Origin: Candidatus Helarchaeota archaeon
GTDB lineage: Archaea; Asgardarchaeota; Lokiarchaeia; Helarchaeales; RDOG01
Direction of reading: 5' to 3'
DNA: 64,000 bases
NCBI GenBank assembly: GCA_019058315.1
Contig: JAHPZH010000002.1
Coordinates: 1,037,910-1,101,909 of the forward strand
A program made the position numbers and the translations under genes. Shown here in pieces: positions 3,001 through 63,796 of this stretch. Under the pieces are notes generated by a model. The model made no database searches, was not told the origin of the DNA, and saw nothing but the letters and a program-made list of their open reading frames with translations. Each line of letters begins with the position of its first letter. Position 1 is the first letter of the stretch.

Positions 3001-5195
3001 GCCTCCCCCAAAATATTTAATGCATCTATTGATAAATATGCATTTTGAATAGATGAAAATGTCCCATCATCTTTTAATTCACTCTCCTCTATTATTTGTT
3101 CTCTTAGAACATCTTTTTCTAATAACATTTTATATATCGTTTCTACCTGTTTCGGTTCAATTATTAATTCTTTTAAAAGGTTTGTAGCGAACCATAATCT
3201 TTCTAAGTTTTCTGCATAAGGTTGGATAATAGAAAGGGAATCATTATCTAAAAAAAACTGTTCATCCCATACCAATTTGATGTCGGAACTTTCTAAAAAT
3301 GATACAAATTGTTGTGTTTTTTGATTTTTACTATAGATATTTTCTAAAGACAGATAATGTAGACCTATTTCTTCTAAACCTCTAATCGGATCAAGAGCTT
3401 TTACCGCGATTATTGCCCAATACTGACTTTCCAAATCTTCTTGCATGATTCGATTCCAAATTATTCGACCTCCAACCATTTCTTTTATCTTTTCATATGC
3501 CATAGGTCTAATGGAGACTATTTCATCTTTTGCATCTATATAATTCAAGATACAAATTGCTTTAGCAGTGATTTCTATATTTGGAGTATCACCAAAAGTT
3601 TCAGAAAATCCTCCCTCAAGTCTCCACCTCTCCATAAGCCAAGAAACAAGTTTATTTCTATTAATATTTTCTAAAAATTTATCCTTTTTACCAAATAAAT
3701 CTAAAAATTGGAAAACTTGATAAGTTGTATCAATAGAAGAATATTCTTCATCTAATGCAAATCCCCCATCCTCAGATTGAAGGCTAGAAAAATATTCAAT
3801 TGTTGGGTCTTCTTTTTTAAATATCGGTGATTCAGATAAGAAATATAACATTAACGCATTGGGACTATTCTGTAAGTTTAAAATATTGATTCCTAATCCC
3901 AAAACCATTATGATTAAAATGGCAATTCCTACAGTAGGTGCTGCTCTTTTTACATATTTTGGCAATTTAATAGGTCTATTCTTTGGTTTTTTAGTCCAGA
4001 TCATCTTTTTGTTGGATTTAAGACTATATTGCTTAAAAATACCTCTCTTTACTGTTTCTTTTGTTTTATTTAGCGCATCTATTATAAAATTTTTAAAATT
4101 TATCACTTTAGTACTTAAAAGCAGCATTTTTTTAGATTTGTTTTGGGAATTTTTACGTAATTTTAAGGGAGTTATAGTATATTTTAGACTAAAATCTTTA
4201 CTGTTAGTCTTTTTATTTTTAATAAAAGATATCAAAGCATTTATTTGATAAATTATGTATTTTAATAAATCAACCTTGTATTCAATCTCTTCGTTTTTCA
4301 AATTTTCTAAGGTTCTATTTTTCAAGATCCTTAAAAGGTCAATTTTTCTGTTGTCAGAATATCCTTTTAATTCTAAAATGTGTTTAGCTTTTTCAAGAAA
4401 AGTTTCTTCTTCCTTTGAATAACCATATTTTCTCCTTAAACCAGCTCTACCAAGTAGACACTCTACTTGAAAAATACTGATAGCATTTGGACATTCAAAC
4501 TCCTTATTTAATTCTCTATCGTGTTCTTTTATCTTTGGATCGCTGTCAAAACTCAAATTTTGGTAATTAATGTCTCTATTTATATTTATTTTATATTTAT
4601 TACGAATTATTTTTAATTTATGTTCTATATTTATAGCATCAAGCTGTCCTTCTAAGAGTTCCTTGAAGAAATCAAAATATTCTTTACTTTCAAAGAGGTA
4701 ATTACTATTATTTTCCTTTGATGCTAAAAATTCATCGACTTTAGCAATCAAATATGAAATACGTGATAAATTTTTGGTTAACTCATGATATTCTTGGATC
4801 CTTTTATCTATATACTTAAATCCATTTAATAATGCATGGAATTTCTGATCAACTTCCATCGTAATATTTCTAAAATGAAGATTATTTAATTCTCCTTCGA
4901 GTTCTTCTAATAAATCAGTCTTAAAATTCGTTAACTCACTTAAGGTTAATTTTGGTTGCTTTTTATATTTCTTTTCAAGAAAATTAATAAAAATATCTAA
5001 CTTTTTATTTTCTAGTCGGGGTTCCCAGATAGAATTATAAAATGCAGCTGATAATATGGAATATATTCTATTTTTAAAAAAATCTTGCTTTTTATAATCG
5101 TTGATATACTTTTCAGCCATTTTTTCACATTCAAAACGATTATGCATACCATTGTCAGTATGATTTCTCGTTATTAACTCAGACTTTGTAATCAT
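1..5195 (-). CDS. Giant multi-pass membrane protein (>=1731 aa, 3' end beyond the window) with prenyltransferase/squalene-oxidase-like repeats
   Basis: Manually translated. ATG at 5195 preceded by AAGGTGA SD-like motif; frame open to position 1 (MITKSELITRNHTDNG...). TM1 AAPTVGIAILIIMVLGLGINIL (~3935-3880); YFSSLQSEDGGF and LVSWLMERWRLEGGFS motifs (~3795-3600); TM2/TM3 separated by KKKNK (~2630-2490). Absent from the ORF track because there is no stop in the window. Confidence 0.9.
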   Translation of the reverse strand, partial: MITKSELITRNHTDNGMHNRFECEKMAEKYINDYKKQDFFKNRIYSILSAAFYNSIWEPRLENKKLDIFINFLEKKYKKQPKLTLSELTNFKTDLLEELEGELNNLHFRNITMEVDQKFHALLNGFKYIDKRIQEYHELTKNLSRISYLIAKVDEFLASKENNSNYLFESKEYFDFFKELLEGQLDAINIEHKLKIIRNKYKININRDINYQNLSFDSDPKIKEHDRELNKEFECPNAISIFQVECLLGRAGLRRKYGYSKEEETFLEKAKHILELKGYSDNRKIDLLRILKNRTLENLKNEEIEYKVDLLKYIIYQINALISFIKNKKTNSKDFSLKYTITPLKLRKNSQNKSKKMLLLSTKVINFKNFIIDALNKTKETVKRGIFKQYSLKSNKKMIWTKKPKNRPIKLPKYVKRAAPTVGIAILIIMVLGLGINILNLQNSPNALMLYFLSESPIFKKEDPTIEYFSSLQSEDGGFALDEEYSSIDTTYQVFQFLDLFGKKDKFLENINRNKLVSWLMERWRLEGGFSETFGDTPNIEITAKAICILNYIDAKDEIVSIRPMAYEKIKEMVGGRIIWNRIMQEDLESQYWAIIAVKALDPIRGLEEIGLHYLSLENIYSKNQKTQQFVSFLESSDIKLVWDEQFFLDNDSLSIIQPYAENLERLWFATNLLKELIIEPKQVETIYKMLLEKDVLREQIIEESELKDDGTFSSIQNAYLSIDALNILGEADGLYQYQKYQNLTKWLGETPFEETIETLSAQQNYGLPSLRPDLDYLKLAFYQQAISRNIENYINSNHYNYEPNFMTLPNGTIVIGNFTEEEIPIKDGLGFPSRRPDFPIESISPYLEDIFAIDYTLLALISLFLIISLLILYTFLKKKNKMVLFAIFVCVLMISGDLIIAAQSNIPDMTSNPDITAPIQLFNEFNSFATRDHERTNSPINMNNYGKLQASVGITETTFSNDFEMATKSQISVDLNENLEGSFISPPVPVASSGMTGPARSIPRQPTDFLDDVPRAAIRPPSGITHTQLDEMCAVAGRAVAQDIAQITPVFIDNTIQAGSGFAQEIAQIRHLSVQDFVLAMYPEFLTVPNIVSNYFDDVGVNLEDLSIEYFTDFIKIELEDKIQLVMKEFADDYYYGFYKPEKGEVEIPIWLLLYIWDTWEFLSKEEYNAAVEKFNTRPALPPEYEMKRSHHFHKWMASKLKQKMIEEIIRQNAEERARIEAGLPPSSPNYQEVVDNLLGEIIFDSTAGFYKTLKESGDPEYAIESGLQGACFHLMPWDPEKQKVIVLRRKLPGAKQVMRETEQMATFLLPVDKKEMREYALNNFIWLSQKDQGLKMYVQACADTKPSWYEKGFTSTYPNWDDEDFLLRIWKSGHLEEDIEQVYAVRREQMDYLAIGEYNQWQNIKKVEIIYIPKGSLEEIEEELVEVEEFRHMLELSEISFEEFFKVLSFDHSNQEFFDFLDSYTEAIGTTNANLNDAIFNVPAETIDLYNAINLMRWGSTGYAPGAGPLIPLKESGTPFGPFNRIYAQEQRLAEHRLFLDRYMITTTSEFYDQAMGIHSYSVVPFKPLKDHLEHPYGKVPVDELAQELSQISSRINREYSKSYAVGRNINGEKAVTGYLFYVNIENQRLIWVAQTEDGEEIIQFNLRRQGIFQKDINHCFSQIRFDPVTKELSFKDTRISSDKYNIENKNDMEEFNHIVQKNLENFIQNPSSSIGLKYGIFNININAN

Positions 5196-49410: not shown

Positions 49411-50721
49411 ATGGATGAATACGGTAAATTTAATAAGGTTTTTTTAATTGGGATTTTTATCTTTCTTATTAATTTAATGAATTTAGAGGTAGGTTATTTT
49501 TTAACTATATTTGATTCAATTTTAATAGATTTCAGGGTTGAACAAGGAGCAATTGGTTGGATACTCCTTGGATTTTTTTTAGTACAAGCCATTTCAACTA
49601 TATTATTTGGTTATTATTCAGATAAATTTCAGCGACGTAAACTCTTCGCTCTAGGGGCTTTTCTTTATTCATTTTTTTGTATTATTATCTATTTAAATAA
49701 ATTCACAGAGAATTTCATTATATTATTAATTTTTCGCTCTTTAGTTGCTATAGGTCTGGGATGTTCCACTCCCATAGGAATATCTATGATGGTTGACTTA
49801 ATTCCAAGTAAAAACCGTTCTCAAGTTTTTGCAATTTATATTGTATTTACCTATTTTGGTACAATCTGGGGTGTTCTGTTTGGTTTTGTGCCTAATTTAC
49901 TCGAAACAATAGTAATTTTAATCACAAGTAGTATTGATTGGGAAAATCTATATCTTTACATTGGAATTGCTGGATTTATTGGCTGTGGTGCTTTATTATT
50001 ATTCAAAGAACCTAAGCGAGCGGCAACTGAAGAACTCTTTATTGAAATGATATCCTCTGGAGAAAATTATGCATATAGAATTAAATCCGAAGATTTAAAA
50101 CAAATATATACTAGACGAAGTAATTTTTGGTTAATTGTCAATTTTATTGATACCATTGCACCAGGATTACTTGTAAATTGGATACTTTATTACGCAGAAC
50201 AAGATGTTATTTATCGTGGTATTTCCCCGATTCAAATTTTTATTTCGGTTGGAGTCGTAGTAGGCTGTTTAATAGGTGGAACATTTGTATTTGCAAAGAT
50301 CGGAGATCAGAGAAAACAATTTGACAAAACAGCTAGGGCAAAAATCGCAATTTATTGTGCAATATTTAATGTACCTTTAATTATTGTCGCTTTTTTATTT
50401 CCACGATTTGGATTAATTTTTACAATCTTTCTTGCTATTGGAATGGCTGTTGATTCAGGTATCGGACCTAATTGGTATTCGACTCTTATTGATGTAAATC
50501 CTCCCGAACTTCGGGGAACTATGGTAGCTATGGCATCCTTTTTAGATACGATTGGTAGGGGAATTGGAGGATTAATTGGTGGCTATTTTGGCTTAGAATT
50601 CTCAATTATATTCTTATTCTTAAGCATCTTTCCTTGGTTACCTGTTTTTAAGCATATTGAAAAAGATTTGGATGAAGTTGAGAATATTTTAAAAGAACGT
50701 GTAAGTAAAATGAGTAGTTAA
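49411..50721 (+). CDS. MFS transporter
   Basis: GYYSDKFQRRK motif A; DVNPPELRGT; ~12 TM. Confidence 0.9.
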   Translation: MDEYGKFNKVFLIGIFIFLINLMNLEVGYFLTIFDSILIDFRVEQGAIGWILLGFFLVQAISTILFGYYSDKFQRRKLFALGAFLYSFFCIIIYLNKFTENFIILLIFRSLVAIGLGCSTPIGISMMVDLIPSKNRSQVFAIYIVFTYFGTIWGVLFGFVPNLLETIVILITSSIDWENLYLYIGIAGFIGCGALLLFKEPKRAATEELFIEMISSGENYAYRIKSEDLKQIYTRRSNFWLIVNFIDTIAPGLLVNWILYYAEQDVIYRGISPIQIFISVGVVVGCLIGGTFVFAKIGDQRKQFDKTARAKIAIYCAIFNVPLIIVAFLFPRFGLIFTIFLAIGMAVDSGIGPNWYSTLIDVNPPELRGTMVAMASFLDTIGRGIGGLIGGYFGLEFSIIFLFLSIFPWLPVFKHIEKDLDEVENILKERVSKMSS

Positions 50722-50768
50722 AAAGTTTGTAATAATTAAAATTAGGAAAATAATTTAGGTCTATTAAA

Positions 50769-51638
50769 ATGAGAATAGATTTTCATTGTCATCTATTTTA
50801 TGAACAAATGACACCTAAATTCTTAAAAACACAATTTAAAACATTTGAGGGTTATACTTTTTTTAATAGAATGATACAAGGAATAGAACAATTAGAACCA
50901 ATTAATATTGATGATCCCATAAAAAAAACGATTATGATTGCAAAAAGAGCCCAATTAGATAAAATTGTGCTACTATCTACTAGTAAAAATGAAAATGAGC
51001 GAGTTAAAGATTGGGTTAAGATACAACCTGATTTATTTATCCCATTTTTCAATCCTCCCGAAAAGTCGGAAAATAAATCTGAAGTTCAAACTAATGTGAG
51101 TAAAGCCTTGATCGAGGATGGGTTTAAGGGATTGAAAATTATGTTGCCATTTCGAGGAAAGAAAATTAATAGTGAAAATCTCTTTCCTGCTTATGAAATC
51201 GCAGATGAGCAAAATGTACCTGTTTTATTTCATACAGGATACCCCCCTCCAGGAACACCTGGCAAGAGGATGTTTATGAGTCTAGCAAAACCAGTGTTCT
51301 TAGATTCTGTAGCAGCATCATTTCCTTCTCTAAAAATAATCATGGCTCATATGGGTTATCCTTGGATTGATGAAGCTATCTCTATGGCAACTCAATTTCC
51401 AAATTTTTATTTAGATATTAGTAATCTCACCTATATGCAACCTAATCGAATGCGTGATGCTATTCTATACGCAAAGGATATTATTGGTCTCGATAAAATA
51501 CTCTTCGGATCAGATGGTTTTTGTCCTGAAACAATTGAAGTCTGTGTTAAAGCATTTCTTGCGGTGGATTATCTTAAAAAAGATGAGATCAATAAAATTA
51601 TTGGGTTAAATGCAAAAAAAATATTAAATTTAAAGTGA
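50769..51638 (+). CDS. Amidohydrolase_2 family metal-dependent hydrolase
   Basis: IDFHCH, GLKI, LFHTG, AHMGYPW, LFGSD. Confidence 0.92.
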   Translation: MRIDFHCHLFYEQMTPKFLKTQFKTFEGYTFFNRMIQGIEQLEPINIDDPIKKTIMIAKRAQLDKIVLLSTSKNENERVKDWVKIQPDLFIPFFNPPEKSENKSEVQTNVSKALIEDGFKGLKIMLPFRGKKINSENLFPAYEIADEQNVPVLFHTGYPPPGTPGKRMFMSLAKPVFLDSVAASFPSLKIIMAHMGYPWIDEAISMATQFPNFYLDISNLTYMQPNRMRDAILYAKDIIGLDKILFGSDGFCPETIEVCVKAFLAVDYLKKDEINKIIGLNAKKILNLK

Positions 51639-51811
51639 TTTCATATTTTTATTTTAGGTTTTTAATAAAGTCCAAAAAAAAATTTATGATGTGAACCAAA
51701 AAAATAAAATCTATCTAAAAGATAAATTAAAAAGATTAAAAAAAAAGTTTTTATAAGTTATTTAAAATTATTTTCTAATATTATATCATTTAATTATTAA
51801 TTATAGTTTAA

Positions 51812-53473
51812 ATGTGGAGAAAAATGAAAAAACGCAATCTTATGGCTCTCATCATTACTGGAATTTTAGTAATTCCCGTATTTATTGCATTATATGAAGC
51901 TAATGCTTCTTCCAACTTGCCTATTACACTCCCTGCTAAGAATTCTTTCCAATTGTCGTCTCTAACATCATTTAATGATAATTGGACACTTCCTATTCCA
52001 AATCCAGGTATAGACGGTTTAGAATGTAGGATGGCTATTGATTCAAATGATATAATTCACATTGTTTATGTTAATGGTACAATTACTCAACAGATAATAT
52101 ATACTAATTCATCCAATTACACCAATATTCGAAAAGTTTCAAACAATCCAGCTGACTCCGTGGAGCCGGCAATTGCAGTTGGTGATAATACTGTATATAT
52201 TGTTTGGATGGCTACAATTGCGGCTGAATTTAATATTGTAATATCAAACAGTTCTGACTATTTTTCAACAAATTTAACAATATCAACAAATAATTCAGCA
52301 AGTAATTACAATCCCGATATCGCTGTGGATTCTAATGGTATTGTGCACGTTGTTTGGGCAGCACCTCATAACATTACTGGTTTCGGTGAAATTTGGTACA
52401 CAAATAGCAGTAGTAATTATAAAACAATTACAAAAATAACTAATAGTTCTAATGATGATGATAGGAATCCTAGTATTGCAGTAGGTTCTGATAATACCAT
52501 ACATATCGCTTGGAATATGGACCAAATTTTTTACGCTAATTCTACTGACAATTTTCAATCTATTCAAACGGTAAGTAAAAATCCTAGTAACCCTAATACA
52601 AACCCTGATATTGTCGCAACAAACCCAATCTTCATAACTTGGGCTGCTAATGTGGGTGCAGGAGTAGATGAAATTTTTCTTGCGAACAGTTCAAACAATT
52701 GGGAAAATATTACCATTTCTAAAAGTCCAACCAACAATAGTAAACACCCACGAATAATGAAATTTGGTGATATAATTCACATTGTATGGACTGCAGAATA
52801 TTTACCGTCCACGGATCTTGTATCTTATGCAAATAGTCTAGATAATTACCAAGAAAATACAACAATTAGTTTGAATTGTACTTTTGATAATTCTGCCGAT
52901 ATTGCTTTTACTAAAAATGGAAGAATCATTATTATTTGGCCATTTAATTTCACAATTTATTCTCGAAATTCAACTTATCCATCATCTCCTGCAGTAAGAC
53001 AGATAAAATCTATATTAATTCCAATGGAGCTGAACAAACCTGGAACTGCAATGCTTGCATTTGGCGAATTTTTTAATGAATTTTATATTGAAAAAGTAGA
53101 GATAATGTGGTCCACAAATACTGGCGTTTCATGGAATACTTTTCTAATGTTTGGCTCAGGAAATGGGACAAAATGGAAAGGCACAGGAGTGATTCCTGGT
53201 TATCAATACGGCGTTGTATTATTGTATAAGTATAAGATAACTGACAAGGCTGGAATTGAACATGAGACCACACAACAAATGTTTTACTATCCAGATACTA
53301 GGACTGAAAGCATAGTATTAATCATAATACTATTCGGAGTATTGGGAACTCTCACAGCACTATATCTTATTCCACAAACAAGGAACTTCTTTGGTAGGCT
53401 ATTTAGTCGTAAAGAAGATAAAACTACTGAAAAAGCAAAAAAGCCTGAAGTTAAGGAAACACCTGAATCTTAA
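51812..53473 (+). CDS. Membrane-anchored surface beta-propeller protein
   Basis: Signal/TM; ~6 repeats PxIAVDSxGxxHIVW...IxYxNS; Ig-like segment; C-terminal TM and charged tail. Confidence 0.82.
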   Translation: MWRKMKKRNLMALIITGILVIPVFIALYEANASSNLPITLPAKNSFQLSSLTSFNDNWTLPIPNPGIDGLECRMAIDSNDIIHIVYVNGTITQQIIYTNSSNYTNIRKVSNNPADSVEPAIAVGDNTVYIVWMATIAAEFNIVISNSSDYFSTNLTISTNNSASNYNPDIAVDSNGIVHVVWAAPHNITGFGEIWYTNSSSNYKTITKITNSSNDDDRNPSIAVGSDNTIHIAWNMDQIFYANSTDNFQSIQTVSKNPSNPNTNPDIVATNPIFITWAANVGAGVDEIFLANSSNNWENITISKSPTNNSKHPRIMKFGDIIHIVWTAEYLPSTDLVSYANSLDNYQENTTISLNCTFDNSADIAFTKNGRIIIIWPFNFTIYSRNSTYPSSPAVRQIKSILIPMELNKPGTAMLAFGEFFNEFYIEKVEIMWSTNTGVSWNTFLMFGSGNGTKWKGTGVIPGYQYGVVLLYKYKITDKAGIEHETTQQMFYYPDTRTESIVLIIILFGVLGTLTALYLIPQTRNFFGRLFSRKEDKTTEKAKKPEVKETPES

Positions 53474-53502
53474 ATTAATTTCTATTTTTTACTTATTTAA
53501 AG

Positions 53503-54918
53503 TTAAACTATCGGAATCAAATTAATATTTGGATAATCTACTTCTAAAGCTAACGGATATTTAAAGTAAGGTTTTATTATTTCTAAAATAACACATCCAT
53601 CCATTCTTTCTAAGTTAAAATGATAATCACATTGATTTAACGAATATTGTAAAGCTTTTGAACCTTTTTTTATAAATAAAACATTTAAATTTCCCCCCAT
53701 ACGTGATACTTCTATGTTTTTCTCTTGAATTGGGATGTAGACATCAAGGGGATACTTGATTTCTAATGATCCAAGACTAGAAAAAAGTTGAATAATGTGT
53801 CCATCTGAAGAATTATCTATTAAATATCTTGCAGTTTCATTGTAAAGATTAATATCCAATTCTAAATTGCTACCATGAGTATATTTAATAAAAGGCTTTT
53901 CTATTTTAAAAAAATTATTTTCCTCTTTAAAAATTAAGACTTTTTTATTAAATACTTCTTCCGAGACTAATGGAACAAGATCATTAAAATATTTCATGGC
54001 ATATTCCTCCCCAGCTGGAGCTATTGTGCAAGTTCGCCCATGTTTCAGAAAATTTAGAATGGTTTGATAGACTAGAGTCTTTGGAAATATATCTGAAATC
54101 CCATCTCCTATCTCGAAAACGATAAAGGATCCCTTTCTATAACCCCCATTTAGAATATTATCTAATTGATGATTTCCTGTCGAGAAACAATCTCCAGAAT
54201 CTTCTATTTTTTGAAAACTACCCTGTTTAATTTTTGGATATAGGGGTTCGAAATTTCTGAATCTGCCGTTATTTAAAGTGAATATATATTCATGCTGAGC
54301 TACTTCTACGCCTCTAAGCTTTTCAATATGCATTTCTCGGATTCTTTTTTTTCGAGCCCTTTTTCCAAACCCTATACGTTTCAAAGTTATGATTCCATCC
54401 ACTATATAGTCTAAATAGGTTTCACTTTCTGTTTCCGTAACTAAAAATAATTTAATCTTCTTTTGTCGAACCATTTCACTTAGAAATGATTCTATTTTAC
54501 CCTCGATAATTGAGGATGATTGGGAATATTTAAGGAGTGTACTCCATGCGTCGATAACGACAAAGGGGTGTTCTAGATTTTTAGTTCTGTGATAGATGAC
54601 TTGTAAGAATTCAGGTAGATCTTTGAACCTAATAATTGATTCAAAGTATGTTTCTGTATCTGTTGAAATATAAGCTAGTTGAGTGATATCAAACATATTT
54701 TCTGGTTTAATTGCATCTTTTATCCAAGGAAACTGATGTTTTAAAGAAAGAGGGCTAACTCTAGTTGAGAAATATAGTGGATTTTCCGATCTAGAAAGTA
54801 ATTCCAAAACTAATGTAGTTTTACCAGAACCTGCTATACCTTTTACTAAAATCGAATACCCATAGGGTTTATTAATAGCCTCGACTAATTCTTTCGGAAT
54901 ATTATCCATACCTCTCAC
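53503..54918 (-). CDS. GvpD-like RAD55/KaiC-family ATPase (duplicated domain, second degenerate)
   Basis: GYSILVKGIAGSGKTT, STRVS, VVIDAW, LDYIVDGIITL...IEKLRG, FSTGNHQLDNILNGGY. Confidence 0.88.
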   Translation of the reverse strand: MRGMDNIPKELVEAINKPYGYSILVKGIAGSGKTTLVLELLSRSENPLYFSTRVSPLSLKHQFPWIKDAIKPENMFDITQLAYISTDTETYFESIIRFKDLPEFLQVIYHRTKNLEHPFVVIDAWSTLLKYSQSSSIIEGKIESFLSEMVRQKKIKLFLVTETESETYLDYIVDGIITLKRIGFGKRARKKRIREMHIEKLRGVEVAQHEYIFTLNNGRFRNFEPLYPKIKQGSFQKIEDSGDCFSTGNHQLDNILNGGYRKGSFIVFEIGDGISDIFPKTLVYQTILNFLKHGRTCTIAPAGEEYAMKYFNDLVPLVSEEVFNKKVLIFKEENNFFKIEKPFIKYTHGSNLELDINLYNETARYLIDNSSDGHIIQLFSSLGSLEIKYPLDVYIPIQEKNIEVSRMGGNLNVLFIKKGSKALQYSLNQCDYHFNLERMDGCVILEIIKPYFKYPLALEVDYPNINLIPIV

Positions 54919-55152
54919 ATCCGAATAGGAATTGAATATTAAATCACGAAAATTTTGTTAAAGAAAATTAAATAAAATAATTAATTTTTTATTAGTAGTT
55001 TTTAGACCTCGTTTTTTAATTTTTTCCATTGAAGTGTGTGATTCCGATCATACTATGAGATATTAGTTCTTTTTGAGGTTTTTTAAGAAAGCTTTTAATT
55101 TAATGAAATCTAATTAAATAATAAAGATTGACAAAATGAGGAACTTTATGCG

Positions 55153-55389
55153 ATGTTTCAAATAGAAGAAGCACCCACGGGCACCACTAAATGTGATTGG
55201 TGTGGGGAGCTTATTAAAAAAGGCACACTTAGACTAAGATTTGCCCCGCCAAAAGGTTACAATTATTATTGGCATCAAGATTGCGGGATAAAATATTTGG
55301 AAGGACTAAAAATTATGTTAAAAAATGGCGAAAAAGGTCATATTGGTCGAGAAGAAGCAGATAAAGCTCGGAAAGATGTGAGGTTATAA
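55153..55389 (+). CDS. Stand-alone PARP-type zinc-finger protein
   Basis: IEEAPTGTTKCDWCGELIKKGTLRL...WHQDC (C-x2-C-x23-H-x2-C); GAGGA SD-like motif. Confidence 0.75.
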   Translation: MFQIEEAPTGTTKCDWCGELIKKGTLRLRFAPPKGYNYYWHQDCGIKYLEGLKIMLKNGEKGHIGREEADKARKDVRL

Positions 55390-55730
55390 ATTTACGGTTA
55401 TGTTAACCTTTACTCCTGCATAATAATCAAGTAAAAGAAAATCAATTAATACAGAAACGGAAATTTAATTATTTTAATTTATGTCGATGAATTTCTAAAA
55501 AAACCGACCTTTCAAGGCTTTTTAGTCCAAATCCCACTTAAACTTCATCAAAAATAAGAAATACATGAGAAATTTTTATATTTGGTATAAAATTTTGACT
55601 TTTTTTTAAATTTTTCCTAAATAAAAACAATTAAATATTAAAAAAAATATATAAAATCATAATTTATATAAATCTTAAGATTACTTTAATACTTGATGAT
55701 TAGTCTTATCCACAATAAGGAAATGGTTAT

Positions 55731-57404
55731 TTGGATGAAATAAGTTTTTCTTCTGCTTTGAAAAAAATGAAAAAGGTTCGTATTATTCGTTTAAAAAGCA
55801 TTTTATTTGAATTATACGGTTTTGAAATGAATAAATATGAAGTAGCAAAAATTGTGGGAGTTACACCCCAAGCCATTGGACCAGAAATCGATTTTTTGGA
55901 GAATGTCGATCTTCTTAAGAAAACAAGGGTGGAGAAACGCAGAGGTCTTCCATCTTTTTATTATACATTAAATATTGAATCATTAATTGATAGTCTAAAT
56001 CTAGATAGCGATGAAAAAGGTATTTTAAAAGAGGGGCTTATTCGTCTTCAGAATGCTTACCGGCAATTAAAAAACTTGGAAAAAGACAGAAAAATTTCTA
56101 AGATAGAAAGCAGTTTGTATGAAGGAATAGTTCCAAATGACTATAAAATGTTTAATCTACAATTTATTAGTTCCATTTTAATAATTGCTGCACTTCTTTT
56201 CGATTTTGGATTTTCAATGCTACCTGATTTTCTTAAAAATAACCAACAATTGTTTTTTATTCTGCAAAATTATTCCAATGAATTACGAGATAACCTAAAA
56301 ATTGATGATCTGGATATGAATAACTGGATTAATGAAAATATCAAATCAATTAGTAATATTTACCAAAAAATTTGGAATGAGTTGATGCAGGCGATAGTAT
56401 TAAAATCAATTATTCAAGAGCCAAGTATGAAAATTATGGATAAGTTTGAAGAGACTAAGGAAGAAGATTTGAAGGTTAAGGTCGAAAAATTTCGAAATTA
56501 CAAAAAACAAAAGATAAAATTTAACGAAATTATTACAGAAGAAACAAATATTAAAAATAAATGTGATCAGAATTTAAGATCGACCGTTAATACCTTACTA
56601 GGGATTCAAAAGAAAGTATTAAAGGATAAAATAATTGGAAATAAATTAGATACTATTTATAATAAACTTTCATCTTTATCAACTAAATTAAAATCAACTT
56701 CTCTAGGAATGACATCATTTGGTACAGAAACAGAAAAAATCGAAGCAGTTAATATTAAAATTGCAATTCTTAAAGCATTAAATGAAGAAGTCGATGAATT
56801 AAAAGACCATTTAGCAAATATGGACCAATCAATTGACTATGGAAATTATGATGAAGTTGAAATACAAATAAAATCACTTTTTTCAATCACCCGAAATTTG
56901 GATAAATTTCAAAATTGGTATATAGATCCAAAAGAATTTCTTGAAAAACCTGCTGAAAAAACTAAAATTGATAAAAATGAATTGGATAATAAGATTTTAG
57001 CTTTAGTAAATAAAAATAAGCGTAATAATATAATTTTATTAAACGATTTTATTGCAGAATTTAGTTCAGCATATCCAAATTTTAGAATTACAAAGAACCA
57101 AATCGTCAAAGGAATACAAAGATTAAGTCAAAAATCAATTTATCCTCAAATTGAATCAATCAAATTGGAGAAGAAAAAAGAAAAGGTTATACGTTTGGAT
57201 TCGACAGATAAGGACCAAATTGAAATACTTCAAATTGCTAACGCTACAAATGGTAGGGTAACAATAGAAGGTCTACAACTACAATTAGATTGGCCTGTCT
57301 ATCGTGCAAAAGTTGTTTTGGAAGATTTAGTTAGTAACAATAAATTACATTTTAAAAGTACACGATCAGAGGGTGATGTGTATTATATTCCAGGAGTGTT
57401 ATAA
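55731..57404 (+). CDS. HTH - helical bundle - ESCRT-II Vps22/36 (EAP30)-like tandem winged-helix fusion protein
   Basis: N-terminal MNKYEVAKIVGVTPQAIGPEIDFLENVDLL...FYYTLN (ArsR-like wHTH). C-terminal DQIEILQIANATNGRVTIEGLQLQLDWPVYRAKVVLEDLVSNN...YYIPG fits the Vps22/SNF8 pattern. Confidence 0.75.
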   Translation: MDEISFSSALKKMKKVRIIRLKSILFELYGFEMNKYEVAKIVGVTPQAIGPEIDFLENVDLLKKTRVEKRRGLPSFYYTLNIESLIDSLNLDSDEKGILKEGLIRLQNAYRQLKNLEKDRKISKIESSLYEGIVPNDYKMFNLQFISSILIIAALLFDFGFSMLPDFLKNNQQLFFILQNYSNELRDNLKIDDLDMNNWINENIKSISNIYQKIWNELMQAIVLKSIIQEPSMKIMDKFEETKEEDLKVKVEKFRNYKKQKIKFNEIITEETNIKNKCDQNLRSTVNTLLGIQKKVLKDKIIGNKLDTIYNKLSSLSTKLKSTSLGMTSFGTETEKIEAVNIKIAILKALNEEVDELKDHLANMDQSIDYGNYDEVEIQIKSLFSITRNLDKFQNWYIDPKEFLEKPAEKTKIDKNELDNKILALVNKNKRNNIILLNDFIAEFSSAYPNFRITKNQIVKGIQRLSQKSIYPQIESIKLEKKKEKVIRLDSTDKDQIEILQIANATNGRVTIEGLQLQLDWPVYRAKVVLEDLVSNNKLHFKSTRSEGDVYYIPGVL

Positions 57405-57407
57405 AAA

Positions 57408-58115
57408 ATGAGTGATATGATAACTTGGGATTATGCAACTAATAAAGGCATAGTATATAGATGCCCTGTAGATAAGAAACATAAAGGATTTATTGTAAAA
57501 CAAGGTTTTGAGCAAGCTCTATGGATACGTAATGGAATTTTATATGATACGATTTCTGGAATTTCCTATAAATTTAAGAAAGGTGAAAAAGAGGGCAGTG
57601 AAATAATCTATGTAAAACTTGGAGATATTAAGATTAATTGGGGAATTCCTAAAAATAATGGTATAATCACAGTCGATGGAATAAAAATAGGCGGTCATGG
57701 AGATGTTATCGTTAAAATTTTAAATCCTGCAGATTTCGTATTTAATCTTGCAGGCTCAGTAGGTCAAGAATTTGTGGAATCAGTCGAAAAAGAAATATTC
57801 ATAAAAGGAGAGAAAAATAAGGAAAAAGTTCTTCGTAAAAAAGTGCAAAAAGACGAAATTGATGTTAAAGATGCGAAACGGGCATTAGAAGCTTTTTTAT
57901 TTACAAAAACTGATTTAAAAAATTGGCTAGTCAATGTTATTCGTAGTTCTCTACGTGACAAACTTTCAAAATTAACATTAAATGAACTTCTAAAAGTTGA
58001 CATAAGTGAAGTTGAAAGAGATTTACGTATAAAAAATACAGATGTATTTCAAAGTTGGGGTTTGGAGCTTAAATCTTTTAGTATAATCGGATGGCAATTA
58101 CCAAATAATTTCTGA
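57408..58115 (+). CDS. SPFH/Band-7 domain protein, YdjI-type
   Basis: FIVKQG-EQALWIRNG...IIYVK...INWG...GGHG...KILNPADFV...LR...WGLELKSFSI. Confidence 0.8.
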   Translation: MSDMITWDYATNKGIVYRCPVDKKHKGFIVKQGFEQALWIRNGILYDTISGISYKFKKGEKEGSEIIYVKLGDIKINWGIPKNNGIITVDGIKIGGHGDVIVKILNPADFVFNLAGSVGQEFVESVEKEIFIKGEKNKEKVLRKKVQKDEIDVKDAKRALEAFLFTKTDLKNWLVNVIRSSLRDKLSKLTLNELLKVDISEVERDLRIKNTDVFQSWGLELKSFSIIGWQLPNNF

Positions 58116-58117
58116 CG

Positions 58118-60478
58118 ATGATTTATATGAGTAATAACCCAGAAATTAAATATGACGGAGTTCTTTATTATCTTCCATTATATGAAGATGAAATCGTAAG
58201 AAATATAGTCAGTGCGGATAAACGAGTCAAAAGACGTAAGGATCTTGATGGCTATATCATTTTAACAAATTACAGATTTATCTTCATGGAAAGGAAAAAA
58301 GATTTAGAATATCACCTTTCAAGCTTTTTCTATTATAAAGATATTGAAAATATTAGACTTGGTGGAGTTGTCAATAAATTTATACAAATTAATGGTGTTC
58401 TATTTCATCCAAAGGATGTTTCAGTAGATTACTTAAGAAGTTCAATTAATAAATTCACAATAGAAGCAAAAAAACAAATCTTTTCATTTGAGCCAATGCC
58501 AGAAGAAGAACCCTTTCCTGAAGTTGAAATCAGCGATAAAAATATGTTTAATAAAGTTACAAACCTCTTCATTTCGATTTTTTCAACAATAATTGGACTT
58601 TTTTTAGTATTAAACTCTGCTTTATCTTTTTATTTTGGACCACATGCTTATTTGCCATTTGTAACCTCTATATTAGGAGTCGTTTTCTCTTCAATTATAA
58701 TGGGTGTCATAAATCATGAGAATAATAAAGATAATTTTTCAGAGGAATATTTTGATTCGCTAAAAAACACACTTTACTTTTCTATTTTAAGTCTTACATT
58801 TACTAGTGTAGGTTTGGGGCTTGATGGTCACTATGGACTGGCATTCAATTTATTTAGTATTAGATACAACTCCGCTCTCCTGATATTCGTCGTTTATTTA
58901 ACAATTGGAGTTCTTCTAATGTTTAAAAATGGAATTAATTTCTCAAATTTATTTAACGAGCCAGAGAATCCATATAATGAATTTAATAATAGAATTTTTG
59001 AAGAATTTGAATCTGAGAAGTTTCAAAACCGATCAAAAATGATATTTATTGTTTTTATCACTTTAATTGCAATACAAATGTTAATTTTAATCCTTTACAA
59101 CTTATTTCCTGGTGGCGGTATATATTTGGTCTTTTCATGGACTTTCTCTCAAACCCCAGCTCCCTTGGATGTTAGAAGTATCATTCCTGGTAATAGCTAT
59201 TATCTATTTAATCCTCTATTTTCAGGTGCAACAATTGTCGTTGGAATTTTTGGATTAATTTTAACTGCAATTATTCAAGCTCGAAATATTGGATATTTAA
59301 GATATTATTCTCTAGATATTTACAACACACTAAAAAACCGAGTTAGAGACAAAACCAATAGAATGAAATTGTTAAAAGAAAGAATTTTAAATAAAACACA
59401 AAATATTCTTAAACAAATGCATGCAGCTGTTACAGGAGTTGCAGAAAAGTCTATCCCAATAACGGAACAAGAAAGACGAATACCTATTGAAGTAAATGAT
59501 CAGAAAAAAATTGAAAAAATACATGTCGTGCCAAATTCAACAAATTCGAACTCTTTAATAAATCAAGTATCTGTTCAAGATAAATCTACTGAAATTCCAA
59601 TTATGGTAACTAAAGAAGAAGAAATCCCAATACCCGAAATAAAAAAACAAGAGCTCGTAGAGAGGATTATCGGAAAAATTGAAGTAAAACGTGGGGGACT
59701 AATAAAAGGAAGTGAATATTTATATAAAGTAAAAGTGGAAAATTTGTCTAATTCAGTAATCACCGATTTAAGAATCATAATAACTTCATATCCCGATGAT
59801 AGCTTAAAAATTGTAGGTTCAGAATTGCAAAAAAGATCAAAATTAACTCCTGGTGAAATGGTTTCCCCGTCTTTTACATTTCGGCCTACTGAAGATTGTA
59901 TTGTCGGAAAAATTAATTCAATTGTAACGTATTTAGATGCAAGAGGTGAATCACAACAAATAAGCATAGAACCTCTTATTATACGCTTTATTTGCGGTCT
60001 TTTAACTCCCCTTCCCATTAAAGCAGAAGAATTTGATCAAATAGTCAAAAAATTATTAAATTATTCGAATGCTGGGGAAGAGCTCGAATTGCCTCATAGC
60101 GCAAAGAGTATTTATGAAAAAGCAAAAGTATTATTGCCACAAAATAACTTTTATCTTATTTCCGCGGAGGATCATGAGGTTGCTTCTAATTTTATTGGTA
60201 TATTAAAAGGATTTGCTGCAGGACAATATTCTCATAAAAAAGTGGGTACACAAATAACTGTTACAGGTAAAAAAAATGAGAATTTTTGTGCTGCTCGAAT
60301 AGATGGATATACAGAAGATGCATCCATGTTAACACCTCTAATTTCGGAGCTAAAAAATGATATAAGAAGCTGGAATTGTGAGCAATGTGGAGCGCAATTA
60401 AGTGATACTCAAATTAAGAAAATATTAGATGGTAAAATTGTTCGATGTAAATATTGTGATGAGATATTAAAAATATAA
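58118..60478 (+). CDS. PH-like - ~6 TM - adaptin/COP appendage-like (Ig + platform) - Zn ribbon protein
   Basis: GYIILTNYRFIF...YKDIENI (PH/GRAM-like); six hydrophobic helices; YKVKVEN...LTPGE...FTFRP...TYLD...LTPLPIKAEEF; CEQC...CKYC. Confidence 0.7.
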   Translation: MIYMSNNPEIKYDGVLYYLPLYEDEIVRNIVSADKRVKRRKDLDGYIILTNYRFIFMERKKDLEYHLSSFFYYKDIENIRLGGVVNKFIQINGVLFHPKDVSVDYLRSSINKFTIEAKKQIFSFEPMPEEEPFPEVEISDKNMFNKVTNLFISIFSTIIGLFLVLNSALSFYFGPHAYLPFVTSILGVVFSSIIMGVINHENNKDNFSEEYFDSLKNTLYFSILSLTFTSVGLGLDGHYGLAFNLFSIRYNSALLIFVVYLTIGVLLMFKNGINFSNLFNEPENPYNEFNNRIFEEFESEKFQNRSKMIFIVFITLIAIQMLILILYNLFPGGGIYLVFSWTFSQTPAPLDVRSIIPGNSYYLFNPLFSGATIVVGIFGLILTAIIQARNIGYLRYYSLDIYNTLKNRVRDKTNRMKLLKERILNKTQNILKQMHAAVTGVAEKSIPITEQERRIPIEVNDQKKIEKIHVVPNSTNSNSLINQVSVQDKSTEIPIMVTKEEEIPIPEIKKQELVERIIGKIEVKRGGLIKGSEYLYKVKVENLSNSVITDLRIIITSYPDDSLKIVGSELQKRSKLTPGEMVSPSFTFRPTEDCIVGKINSIVTYLDARGESQQISIEPLIIRFICGLLTPLPIKAEEFDQIVKKLLNYSNAGEELELPHSAKSIYEKAKVLLPQNNFYLISAEDHEVASNFIGILKGFAAGQYSHKKVGTQITVTGKKNENFCAARIDGYTEDASMLTPLISELKNDIRSWNCEQCGAQLSDTQIKKILDGKIVRCKYCDEILKI

Positions 60479-60485
60479 AAATTCT

Positions 60486-62414
60486 TTATACTGGTAAACT
60501 TAAAGGTTCATAATCCTCAATTTTTTTCTGCTTTTTTTTCGTTTTGGTTATTTTTTTAGCCCGTTTTGTTTTTTTGACCTTTTTTATTTTTTTCTTTTTA
60601 ATTTTTCCTGTCTTTTTCTTTTTTTTAGTCTTTTTACTTATTTTCTTTTTACTTTTTATGACTTTTTTTGCTTTTTTAACCTTTTTAACCTTTATTTTCT
60701 TTGGTTTAGGTTTTTCAAAAGTTTTTTCTACCTTTTTCCCAATCGGCTTCGGAATTGGTTCAATTTCTATAGGTTCTTCTATTTTTTCAACCTTTAGCTC
60801 TTTTACTTTTTTAATTTTTTTATTTTTTTTAGCTTTTTTCTTTTTGATCTTTTTTATTTTTTTTGCTTTTTTAGCTTTTTTAACCTTAATTTTCTTTGGT
60901 TTAGGTTTTTCAATAATTTTTTCTACCTTTTTCTCAATTGGTTTCGGGATTGGTTCAATTTCTATGGGTTCTTCTATTTTTTCAACCTTTAGCTCTTTTA
61001 CTTTTTTAATTTTTTTAGCTTTTTTCTTTTTGATCTTCTTTATTTTTTTTGCTTTTTTAGCTTTTTTAACCTTAATTTTCTTTGGTTTAGGTTTTTCAAT
61101 AATTTTTTCTACCTTTTTCTCAATTGGTTTCGGGATTGGTTCAATTTCTATGGGTTCTTCTATTTTTTCAACCTTTAGCTCTTTTACTTTTTTAATTTTT
61201 TTAGCTTTTTTACCCTTCTTTATCCTTTTTACCTTTGGTTTTTTGATTTTCCTTATTTTTTTAGCTTTTTTCTTTTTGATCTTCTTTATTTTTTTAGCTT
61301 TTTTAGCCTTTTTAGCTTTAATTTTCTTCGGTTTAGGTTTTTCAATAATTTTTTCTACCTTTTTCTCAATAGGTTTCGGGATTGGTTCAATTTCTATGGG
61401 TTCTTCTATTTTTTCAACCTTTAGCTCTTCTACTTTCTTGATCTTTTTTATCTTTTTTATTTTTGGCTTTTTACGTTTCTTTACCTTTTTAATTTTTTTC
61501 TTTTTAACTTTTTTAACCTTTTTCTTCTTTATTTTTTTAACTTTTTTTGGTTTTGGCTTTACTTTTTTTACCTTTTTAACTTTAACCTTCTTTAATTTAG
61601 GTTTCTTAATCTCAACTTCTATAGGTTCTTCCTCGATTTTAATAGGAGGTTTGATTACTTCAGGAGGTGTTATAACTGGTTTAGTTATAGATTTTGAAAT
61701 TGGTTTAGTAATAAGTTTGGTTATGGGTTTGCTTACAGGTTTGGTTATTGGTCTTGTTACGGGTTTGATATTTGGTTTGGTTATAGGTTTAGTTACAGGT
61801 TTAGTTATGGATTTTGTTACGGGTTTAATAATTGGTTTGGTTATAGGTTCAGTTATGGGTTTTATTACGGGTTTAATAATTGGTTTGGTTATGGGCTTGG
61901 TTACAGGTTTAGTTATGGGTTTAGCAATTATTTTTTCTTTTATAATTTGTGTTGGTTCTGTATCAATGGGTGAACTTAATATCTCCTCCTCAAATTCTGA
62001 TGGATGAGTTAATTCTTCTACAATTTTATGAATTGATGCTGTCATTTCTAATTCAAGCATACCTTCTTCTTCATCAGATACTGGTTCAACAGTAGTTGTT
62101 AATTTTGGTTCTACAGTAGTTGTAACTTCTGGTTCTACAGTAGTTGTAACTTCTGGTTCTATAGTAGTTGTAATTTCTGGTTCTACAGTAGTTATAGAAG
62201 GTTCTACTTTCAAAGGGTCTTTAACGATTTCTAAAGTTGGTAATGGAGTCAAGAAGAAAATAAATTTTTCAGGACAATAATTTTCATGAATATTTAGAAA
62301 TTCTCTTCTAATTTTTTTGAAGGTTTGAACCATTTCTAACCTATGTAAAGTATAATCCGATCGAAATGCAAAATCAGAACCCTTTACTTCTCTAAACTTT
62401 ATCTCTTCCTTCAT
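60486..62414 (-). CDS. Low-complexity Lys-rich repeat protein (histone H1-like composition)
   Basis: 642 aa; TTTVEPE repeats, KP(I/V)T repeats, then four KELKVEKIEEPIEIEPIPKPIEKK blocks separated by poly-Lys stretches. Confidence 0.8.
   Translation of the reverse strand: MKEEIKFREVKGSDFAFRSDYTLHRLEMVQTFKKIRREFLNIHENYCPEKFIFFLTPLPTLEIVKDPLKVEPSITTVEPEITTTIEPEVTTTVEPEVTTTVEPKLTTTVEPVSDEEEGMLELEMTASIHKIVEELTHPSEFEEEILSSPIDTEPTQIIKEKIIAKPITKPVTKPITKPIIKPVIKPITEPITKPIIKPVTKSITKPVTKPITKPNIKPVTRPITKPVSKPITKLITKPISKSITKPVITPPEVIKPPIKIEEEPIEVEIKKPKLKKVKVKKVKKVKPKPKKVKKIKKKKVKKVKKKKIKKVKKRKKPKIKKIKKIKKVEELKVEKIEEPIEIEPIPKPIEKKVEKIIEKPKPKKIKAKKAKKAKKIKKIKKKKAKKIRKIKKPKVKRIKKGKKAKKIKKVKELKVEKIEEPIEIEPIPKPIEKKVEKIIEKPKPKKIKVKKAKKAKKIKKIKKKKAKKIKKVKELKVEKIEEPIEIEPIPKPIEKKVEKIIEKPKPKKIKVKKAKKAKKIKKIKKKKAKKNKKIKKVKELKVEKIEEPIEIEPIPKPIGKKVEKTFEKPKPKKIKVKKVKKAKKVIKSKKKISKKTKKKKKTGKIKKKKIKKVKKTKRAKKITKTKKKQKKIEDYEPLSLPV
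60700..61430. repeat. Four near-identical intragenic DNA repeat units
   Basis: GGTTCAATTTCTA anchor at 60757, 60952, 61138 and 61384 (spacings 195, 186, 246 bp, all multiples of 3). Confidence 0.85.
62083..62207. repeat. 24-bp tandem repeat encoding (V/I)TTTVEPE
   Basis: GGTTCTACAGTAGTTGTAACTTCT-type unit repeated ~4-5 times. Confidence 0.8.
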
Positions 62415-62644
62415 AACTATATTTGGTAAAGAAGAACTTCCATCAATTAAAAACTTCTCATCTCTTTTTTAATAAATTGATTTGTTATTAATACAGACTC
62501 GAAATTTTAAGTATGATATCTTTAATTTTTCTTTATAGATTAATTATAAAAATTATTCTTTGACAAAGAACATATAATCTCTATGGATATAGGAAATTAA
62601 ATAAAAATAGCATTCATTGAATAAAACAATTTTGAGGTTTTTTT

Positions 62645-63796
62645 TTGAATTTAGAAATAAATCTGCTTGCAAAAAGAGATTATAACGAGCTAAAAAATCT
62701 CTATAATAAATTTATAAAATATTTAAGTGTTAACAAAGACCAAGATTACACTCCTTTTACTCTAGAATTTACTAAATATGATATTGAGAATTCTATCTCA
62801 GATGAAGGTTTTATCCTAGGTATTTATTCTGATAAAAAGCTAATTGGAACTATAGGAGCAAATTTAATCCCTGTTATGTTTCAAAATTCTAAATTAATAA
62901 GCTGTACTATTACTTTATATGCTATAGATCCTGACTTTCTCCCATTATCAAAAGATACACAATTAAAGATTTATCAAACCATTATTGATAAAATAAAAGA
63001 GACTCAATCTGATTTCATTTGGATAGTCTTTGACTTAGGAACTAGTTTTGGGGAATATAAAGTCTTCAGAGATGACCTAGATTTTGTAAAGATAAATCCA
63101 AATGTGGAACCTTTAACCAAATTATTGGGAAGCTATGGTATTGATATACTTAAAAAGAAGAAAGGCTTAAGTGCAGTGCTTGCACAATTAGCTAAATTGA
63201 TGGCAAAAATGCAAAAAATCTCCCTTCCCAGTGGAAATATTCGAGAAGCAACTCCTGAAGATTATCCTCAAATTGTTGAATTATTAAATGGGTATTCAGA
63301 AATATTGGATATCGCACAGATCTGGACCGTGGAATCGTTTAAAAAATATCTCGAAATTAGCTCACAAGTAAATAATATCGATCATTCATACTTGGAGGCG
63401 GAATATCCAGATACAAATTGTGGTTTTTTTATCAAAGTTTGGGAATGTGAAAATAAAATTGTTGCTGTATTAACTTATCGAGTAATGGGAGTACAATTTA
63501 AAAAAGGCAAAGCACCGTTATGTTATTGGGATTACCTTGTATTTTCTCAAAATTTAACTATGGATGATAAAAAAGCCTTCATTGTTAATATGTATAACGA
63601 AGTCTATCATAAAGCAAGTACAATTACAGCATTTTTTCCTTATTATGAAGCCAAAGCTCTAAAAAAATCTGGATTCATGTCAAGCCAAATGAAAACTCCT
63701 ATGTACATCTACCCGATAACAGAAAATGGCAAAAAACTTCTTGAACTTAAAAAAATCTCAAAGTTCTATTTGCCATATATAGGTTTTCTTATCTAA
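62645..63796 (+). CDS. Tandem GNAT-fold acyltransferase (N-myristoyltransferase-like architecture)
   Basis: Two GNAT-like halves: KLIGTIGA...LYAIDP and IREATPEDYPQIVELLNGY...IAQIWT...LKKSGF. Confidence 0.6.
   Translation: MNLEINLLAKRDYNELKNLYNKFIKYLSVNKDQDYTPFTLEFTKYDIENSISDEGFILGIYSDKKLIGTIGANLIPVMFQNSKLISCTITLYAIDPDFLPLSKDTQLKIYQTIIDKIKETQSDFIWIVFDLGTSFGEYKVFRDDLDFVKINPNVEPLTKLLGSYGIDILKKKKGLSAVLAQLAKLMAKMQKISLPSGNIREATPEDYPQIVELLNGYSEILDIAQIWTVESFKKYLEISSQVNNIDHSYLEAEYPDTNCGFFIKVWECENKIVAVLTYRVMGVQFKKGKAPLCYWDYLVFSQNLTMDDKKAFIVNMYNEVYHKASTITAFFPYYEAKALKKSGFMSSQMKTPMYIYPITENGKKLLELKKISKFYLPYIGFLI

Follow-up and report, generated by a model that had tools for sequence, protein, structure and literature searches.

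The closest described counterpart of the locus reported here is the SamGHI system of Bacillus subtilis. [quoted passage not shown] Loss of SamI changes global transcription in B. subtilis (PMC13713150). For archaea, the main text of Makarova et al. (2024) describes contextual links between ESCRT and SPFH genes and a patchy diversity of Asgard ESCRT-domain fusions (PMC10936438), and cryo-electron tomography has recently revealed SPFH-like baskets at the inner face of the membrane in an Asgard archaeon (bioRxiv 10.1101/2025.11.06.686947). ESCRT-II is part of the eukaryote-signature machinery that has been traced to Asgard archaea, and the pre-eukaryotic use of its winged-helix modules is an open question. 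Here we analysed a stretch of 64,000 nucleotides (the window) from a Candidatus Helarchaeota archaeon, in which one gene encodes a 557-amino acid (aa) protein that joins a regulator-type winged helix-turn-helix (wHTH) domain, a hydrophobic membrane helix and an ESCRT-II-like domain. We consider it an even chance that this protein serves an SPFH module as its membrane receptor or its organiser, by analogy to SamG/H and SamI.

A wHTH–membrane helix–ESCRT-II-like fusion in Helarchaeota

The gene is found at positions 55731 to 57404 of the window, on the plus strand like all features below unless stated otherwise. It is an open reading frame (ORF) of 557 aa with a TTG start codon, and a TTG start also ends all five aligned orthologous upstream regions. 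The window has a G+C content of about 29% and is located on contig C5 of a 5.8-Mb genome of 12 contigs, which is 94% complete. As judged from the ORF and its full-length homologues, the wHTH is followed by the membrane helix, a helical region and a tandem winged helix of the Vps22/36 type. The full-length homologues have 555-570 aa, are 28-79% identical and come from several independent metagenome-assembled genomes and metagenomes; the same architecture and length was found in at least nine other sequences. Moreover, contigs of an independent sediment study (X2), which are 95-99% identical to the window, span positions 55602-56288 and 56351-57868 without indels and thereby include the domain junctions. 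An artefact of assembly or gene calling, in which an HTH gene and a Vps22 gene were joined into a chimera, has in its favour only the Pfam score of the C-terminal domain, which in the window protein is marginally under threshold; given the recurrence of the architecture and the X2 contigs we rejected it, and hold it to be extremely improbable. Because the fusion is present in independent assemblies and the HTH fold is present as well (see below), the fusion that had been claimed in a preliminary description of this DNA can be regarded as real and recurrent. The family is small, with 12 representatives in a library of 1.8 billion entries. Of 20 related genomes, only those of the family to which the window genome itself belongs yielded full-length copies, with two paralogues in genome G001, and genome G005 has an N-terminal fragment of the fusion. 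The combination of wHTH, membrane helix and ESCRT-II-like domain is thereby confirmed as a domain architecture of a small group of Helarchaeota-type Asgard archaea.

The C-terminal domain (residues ~413-557, positions 56967 to 57401) is a tandem winged helix (WH1 and WH2) of the EAP30/Vps22/Vps36 type. Pfam EAP30 (PF04157) matches residues 417-537 with an E value of 8.6e-6 and 26.1 bits, just under the cut-off of 26.8 bits. In two distant members of the family the match is clear (57.9 bits in P0012 and 41.6 bits in P0013), and six of the ten members match at E<0.1. The family profile detected human SNF8 (3cuq_A, E 1.1e-6) and yeast Vps22 (E 6.9e-4). Furthermore, residues 404-556 are matched by a canonical Asgard Vps22 with steadiness box and EAP30 domain (P0018), at E 1.8e-6 in the representative library and 8.9e-12 in the own-genome search. 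The AlphaFold2 model has a tandem winged helix with a predicted local distance difference test score (pLDDT) of ~88 over residues 415-552. With Foldseek, the seven best matches of the domain are all Vps22 or Vps36 chains of ESCRT-II (SNF8 at E 4e-5), and comparison of residues 413-557 with VIA gave human Vps36 (2zme_B; Z 13.8, root-mean-square deviation (rmsd) 3.3, 140 aligned residues), a further match to human Vps36 (Z 12.4) and yeast Vps36 (Z 10.7). Judged from these sequence and fold comparisons, homology to EAP30 is secure despite the sub-threshold Pfam score of the window protein. The match to SNF8 runs through the very motif that had previously been aligned by eye, so that the SNF8/Vps22 pattern noticed at the C-terminus was borne out.

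Between the fusion and canonical Asgard Vps22 there is good conservation of the WH2 motif, and WH2 is better conserved than WH1. In a domain tree, the check that the preliminary description had proposed, the EAP30 domain of the fusion forms its own clade (98/95), apart from canonical Vps22. No VPS28 or Vps23_core signal was found in the fusion, which means that it has no steadiness box, whereas P0018 has one. A word-indexed search for shorter relatives of residues 404-557 found none, and a profile search with the same aim returned mainly canonical Vps22 of Thorarchaeota. The fusion therefore shares with Asgard Vps22 (asCOG cog.002769) the homologous tandem winged helix and the WH2 motif, but it is twice as long, has an N-terminus that consists of the wHTH, the membrane helix and 230 residues of helical region, and its gene in no case adjoins Vps25, Vps23 or Vps28. 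The best structural matches of residues 413-557 are from Vps36/EAP45 and Vps22/SNF8, the core of eukaryotic ESCRT-II. Unlike these, the fusion has no GLUE/PH domain in this polypeptide and is predicted to be membrane-anchored, and the likeness concerns the tandem winged helix, with no sign of a Y-shaped complex with Vps25.

The N-terminal domain (residues ~13-88, positions 55767 to 55994) was assigned to the ArsR/PH1932 type of wHTH by fold model, Foldseek, profile and conservation. It was poorly modelled in the full-length run and was refolded alone with 12 sequences. This resulted in a pLDDT of 87.3, a predicted template modelling score of 0.76 and the canonical wHTH topology (H1-β-H2-H3-wing), followed by a long helix (residues 93-132, positions 56007 to 56126). 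In structure it is closest to PH1932, an ArsR homologue (Z 10.9, rmsd 2.7, 80 aligned residues, 25% identity). Other matches with Z scores of 9-10 are ArsR, SmtB, CzrA, NolR, ROK, MarR and Phr regulators (Phr with Z 9.6), and all of the top 50 Foldseek matches are wHTH regulators. The sequence profile likewise detected PH1932 (E 0.0029), with ArsR/MarR proteins as the next four matches. Splitting the protein into domains and folding them thus supported the earlier assignment of the N-terminus as an ArsR-like wHTH. Pfam HTH models, on the other hand, were touched by only one or two of the ten members, and all of these matches were below threshold. The long helix follows the wHTH as in PH1932 and Phr, in line with Foldseek alignments of 145-161 columns to 2cwe and 2p4w, and may have a role in dimerisation.

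The wHTH is the most conserved domain of the protein (57% mean pairwise identity) and has a net positive charge in all members. Lys35, Gln47 and Arg66 are invariant, the last of these in a basic wing. In the putative recognition helix, Gly50-Pro51 are invariant where PH1932 has Tyr-His, Asp54 is also invariant, and position 52 is mostly acidic. The likeness to the archaeal ArsR-type regulators PH1932 and Phr is therefore one of fold and of element order, wHTH and then long helix, whereas the invariant Gly-Pro in the recognition helix and the tether to a membrane helix set the protein apart. As modelled, the domain has the fold and the ancestry of a transcription factor, but because of the invariant Gly50-Pro51 and Asp54 it is not assured that it reads DNA.

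The N-terminal part is followed by a hydrophobic helix (residues ~141-164, positions 56151 to 56222), which was recognised by hydropathy and conservation. All members tested, among them the second paralogue of a related genome, reach a Kyte-Doolittle value of 2.15-2.56 over 19 residues. Invariant positions are Leu143-Gln144 and Ser148, Ser147 is nearly invariant, and the mean identity is 52%. From its sequence, the 557-aa protein is thus expected to be a membrane protein and not a soluble factor. In the earlier layout the wHTH and the helices before a Vps22-like end were correct, but this conserved helix between the domains had been missed. Residues ~170-400 (positions 56238 to 56930) form a region of long antiparallel helices according to model and conservation, with the helices themselves at residues 172-398. 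With 34% mean identity it is the least conserved long segment; WH1 has 32%. Residues 258-413 match only generic helical bundles in VIA (IncA with Z 14.5, Rx-CC with Z 14.0 and a V-ATPase subunit), at scores that fall in the noise range of this tool for helical folds, and an Atlas look-up of residues 168-405 gave no usable match.

An SPFH gene directly follows the fusion gene

After a gap of 3 nt from the stop codon of the fusion gene starts a gene for an SPFH/Band_7 protein of 235 aa (positions 57408 to 58115; Band_7 29.3 bits, above cut-off), which has no membrane anchor (maximal hydropathy 1.34). It is followed by a gene for a polytopic protein of 786 aa (P0022; positions 58118 to 60478), with a soluble N-domain, about 5-6 transmembrane (TM) helices, a conserved C-terminal domain and a zinc ribbon of four invariant cysteines (C754, C757, C777 and C780). 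In all five lineages for which downstream DNA is known, an SPFH-domain gene lies directly downstream of the family gene, while the flanking genes differ. These lineages are represented by the window with loci L009 and L010, by L011/L012 (35% identity, different flanks), by L015/L037 (31%), by L013, and by a 495-aa paralogue in L043. A polytopic zinc-ribbon protein of ~716-786 aa is encoded in three of the five. A hydropathy scan revealed no TM-grade segment in any of the SPFH partners, so that each of them would need a membrane receptor. The SPFH partner of L013 carries a PLD-like domain as a fusion (2504-3850, 448 aa). In L043, a protein with bPH_2 and a Cro/C1-type HTH is divergently encoded (3027-3911) beside the G001 paralogue.

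For P0022, a profile search found no sequence relative in the PDB, and its look-alikes in the Atlas are Asgard-only clusters (0.95). Its N-domain has a GRAM/PH-like motif, and a C-terminal domain is strongly conserved at residues ~520-750. An hhalign comparison with a bPH_2 protein was negative (probability 0.3%), and the Atlas adaptin-appendage cluster, reached at 0.75 only, is a lead and not support.

The locus shares with the B. subtilis PspA-SamGHI (YdjGHI) system an anchorless SPFH protein encoded beside integral membrane proteins, of which one has a cytoplasmic zinc finger in the Sam system, as well as a link to the ESCRT world (PMC13713150). In contrast to that system, no match to PspA/Snf7 was found among the ORFs scanned at 49411-63796, and the link to ESCRT is made by an ESCRT-II-type domain. 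The membrane partners are also unrelated to SamG and SamH, and the SPFH protein has no zinc finger. Among the archaeal ESCRT neighbourhoods with SPFH in the main text of Makarova et al., Meth_adaptin and others likewise combine SPFH with ESCRT-type winged-helix and zinc-ribbon proteins, but those loci hold Vps4 and ESCRT-III, which the window locus does not (PMC10936438). The wHTH-TM-EAP30 architecture is absent from that main text.

Relation to canonical ESCRT-II

The canonical ESCRT cluster of this genome is located on another contig (C10; L008, G000:C10:98000-117000) and contains ubiquitin E1-Ub and E2 genes, a UEV-Vps23-like gene, Vps25, Vps4 and three Snf7-family genes. Unlike in most relatives, there is no Vps22 gene beside Vps25 in this cluster, and the genome as a whole gave no Vps28 match above threshold. 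None of the homologous fusion loci examined contains ESCRT genes. The operon to which the preliminary description had referred is not an ESCRT operon: the neighbours of the fusion gene encode the anchorless SPFH protein and the polytopic zinc-ribbon protein, and Vps25, Vps4 and ESCRT-III are encoded on C10. That description is thus partly supported, as it had the domains and the fusion right and missed the membrane anchor and the true operon partners. The neighbourhood points to a new membrane module and not to a classical ESCRT operon.

The only other EAP30 protein of this genome has 176 aa and no steadiness box; in the tree it falls with canonical Vps22, where its branch is long. In 17 of the 20 relatives the best match to this protein is a frame of ~240-250 aa, which adjoins Vps25 where coordinates were compared. 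In this genome and in G001, which are the two with the full-length fusion, the queries used detected no such frame next to Vps25. This would fit a genuine ESCRT-II variant, in which the Vps22-like WH2 docks Vps25 and recruits ESCRT-III and Vps4 to SPFH-marked sites, so that the fusion stands in for the steadiness-box Vps22; the conservation of the WH2 motif with canonical Asgard Vps22, in the better conserved of the two winged helices, would fit as well. However, the EAP30 domain of the fusion belongs to a separate clade and has no steadiness box, the fusion gene never adjoins ESCRT genes, and the 176-aa paralogue is the likelier stand-in. In addition, G005 has the N-terminal fragment of the fusion but no Vps25 was found in this genome, which is only 82% complete. 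A complex prediction of residues 400-557 with the Vps25 of this genome, both given as alignments, scored 0.00, which weighs neither way. We regard such a variant as unlikely.

Two further pairs of Vps22-like and SPFH proteins were found, which are not orthologous to the fusion. One is encoded in this genome (L001, G000:C3:248313-251681), where genes for a helical protein of 108 aa, an anchorless SPFH protein of 342 aa, the 176-aa Vps22-like protein and a multi-zinc-ribbon protein of 245 aa lie on one strand, the Vps22-like gene being between the SPFH and the zinc-ribbon genes. A TM protein with a double wHTH is encoded beside this module. The other pair is from G010, a genome of a different family, in which a soluble 350-aa helical and EAP30-like protein is encoded directly before a 401-aa SPFH protein; its homology to the fusion is confined to residues 433-557. 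Directly upstream of this pair (L045, G010:C36:37500-45500) is a UFC1-like gene (UFM1 E2-type, 27.2 bits).

Elsewhere on C5, a 510-aa protein (L019, G000:C5:495009-498197, ORF 160-1692) ends in a single Vps22-type WH2, with 30 bits to canonical Vps22, indicating that Vps22-type winged helices occur on several scaffolds in this genome. A 555-aa protein (L020, G000:C5:555696-558854, ORF 178-1845) has several Cys-rich zinc-ribbon-like motifs, a PH/GRAM-like motif and a coiled coil; its match to the steadiness box is weak (E 0.35), and by eye it resembles the Asgard Znr_PH_CC_SB family of ESCRT-I-like proteins (PMC10936438).

A possible role in transcription

The upstream region of the fusion gene contains conserved promoter sequences (positions 55616 to 55670), namely a first block (55616-55639) and a palindrome, TATATAAA-N7-TTTATATA, at 55648-55670, which precedes the TTG start by ~61 nt. 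The upstream regions of the three closest orthologues (window, L009 and L010) share both of them, and in L015/L037 they cannot be aligned. A scan for sigma-70 promoters gave 32 sites against 31.9 expected; since this is a sigma-70 model and the host is archaeal, the result is uninformative.

The palindrome is compatible with a membrane-tethered one-component regulator of the ToxR/CadC type. A cytoplasmic wHTH dimer would bind DNA, possibly at the palindrome in its own promoter, while the TM helix, the stalk and the tandem winged helix would form the sensing or regulatory part, whose state the SPFH protein would modulate. This amounts to the coupling proposed in the preliminary description, extended by a membrane anchor. 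In favour of this possibility, the N-domain has its nearest relatives in both structure and sequence among DNA-binding regulators without exception, with PH1932 and Phr sharing the long helix. The same direction is indicated by the strong conservation and positive charge of the wHTH with its three invariant residues, and charges flanking the membrane helix that fit a cytoplasmic N-terminus. The effect of SamI loss on transcription in B. subtilis provides a precedent for such an SPFH link. On the other side, the recognition helix has the invariant Gly50-Pro51 and Asp54 and the mostly acidic position 52, and the Pfam HTH models were hardly touched. ESCRT-type winged helices are protein-binding modules. 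Moreover, both arms of the palindrome resemble archaeal TATA boxes in a genome with 29% G+C, so that its conservation may be plain promoter conservation, and the distant lineages have no alignable counterpart of it. A regulator of this kind is therefore a possibility that we hold only tentatively. A more elaborate proposal is that SPFH scaffold and ESCRT-II-type docking domain together set the activity of a membrane-tethered transcription factor, which would couple the state of membrane remodelling or stress to gene expression, with Vps22-type domains redeployed, in this family of genomes, from ESCRT to SPFH microdomains; this we consider rather doubtful.

Other genes around the fusion

Two candidates for further parts of the module were rejected. 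Small ORFs upstream of the fusion are not conserved, as the 78-aa zinc-finger ORF of the window and a 60-aa helical ORF of L011 have no visible similarity and L009/L010 have no such ORF. The 78-aa ORF (55153-55389) resembles zf-PARP only weakly (E 9.7e-4; 20.3 bits, where the cut-off is 39.3 bits), and no such ORF is present between the ATPase and fusion genes in L009/L010. The divergent KaiC/GvpD-like ATPase gene was rejected since it is found at this position only in close, broadly syntenic relatives. It is encoded at 53503-54918 on the minus strand, with a P-loop of the KaiC/GvpD type (GvpD_P-loop, 61 bits) and a match to GvpD basic region 2 just under cut-off (26.7 bits). Also on the minus strand, an ORF of 642 aa (60486-62414) has no Pfam match. 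The AT skew at 60001-62000 is extreme (-0.41) and suggests that this ORF encodes a low-complexity or repeat protein.

Discussion

As a receptor or organiser of an SPFH module, the 557-aa protein would be inserted in the membrane by its conserved hydrophobic helix, with the ArsR/PH1932-like wHTH at one end and the helical stalk with the Vps22/Vps36-type tandem winged helix at the other. It would serve the anchorless SPFH protein encoded downstream, in most lineages together with the polytopic zinc-ribbon protein. The tandem winged helix may then be a protein-docking platform, as in ESCRT-II, and the module would work apart from the canonical ESCRT cluster. Physical contact between the fusion and the SPFH protein would be part of this function. 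It is favoured by the domain identities, by the TM-grade helix with conserved polar positions in all members, by the SPFH gene next to the fusion in all five lineages despite differing flanks, by the two non-orthologous Vps22-like/SPFH pairs and by the location of the canonical ESCRT cluster elsewhere in the genome.

Several points weigh against this function. The most conserved part of the protein is the wHTH and not the EAP30 domain, which a pure scaffold model leaves unexplained. Gene adjacency gives indirect support, and the lineages in which it is seen in the sequence are few and related. Furthermore, the charges flanking the membrane helix, as read from the sequence, weakly favour an orientation with the N-terminus inside and the C-terminus outside, which would place the ESCRT-II-like domain outside the cell. 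A helix that crosses the membrane once in the ordinary way would put the wHTH on one side and the tandem winged helix on the other, and only one of the two could then meet the cytoplasmic SPFH protein. By analogy, the soluble Vps22-like proteins paired with SPFH suggest that the EAP30 domain works in the cytoplasm, and the N-domain, which is basic and without signal, should be cytoplasmic too. The expectation that both domains are cytoplasmic conflicts with a plain single-pass helix.

For the Asgard archaea, the locus shows a distinct clade of Vps22/36 paralogues that is joined to a membrane helix and a regulator-type wHTH. It also shows that genes for Vps22-like proteins and for anchorless SPFH scaffolds recur as pairs, in three different architectures, and that two related genomes yielded no canonical Vps22 next to Vps25. 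The fusion and its SPFH partner are a concrete candidate for a connection between ESCRT-type and SPFH proteins in the archaeal relatives of eukaryotes and, if this connection is true, for a possible route from the state of the membrane to transcription.

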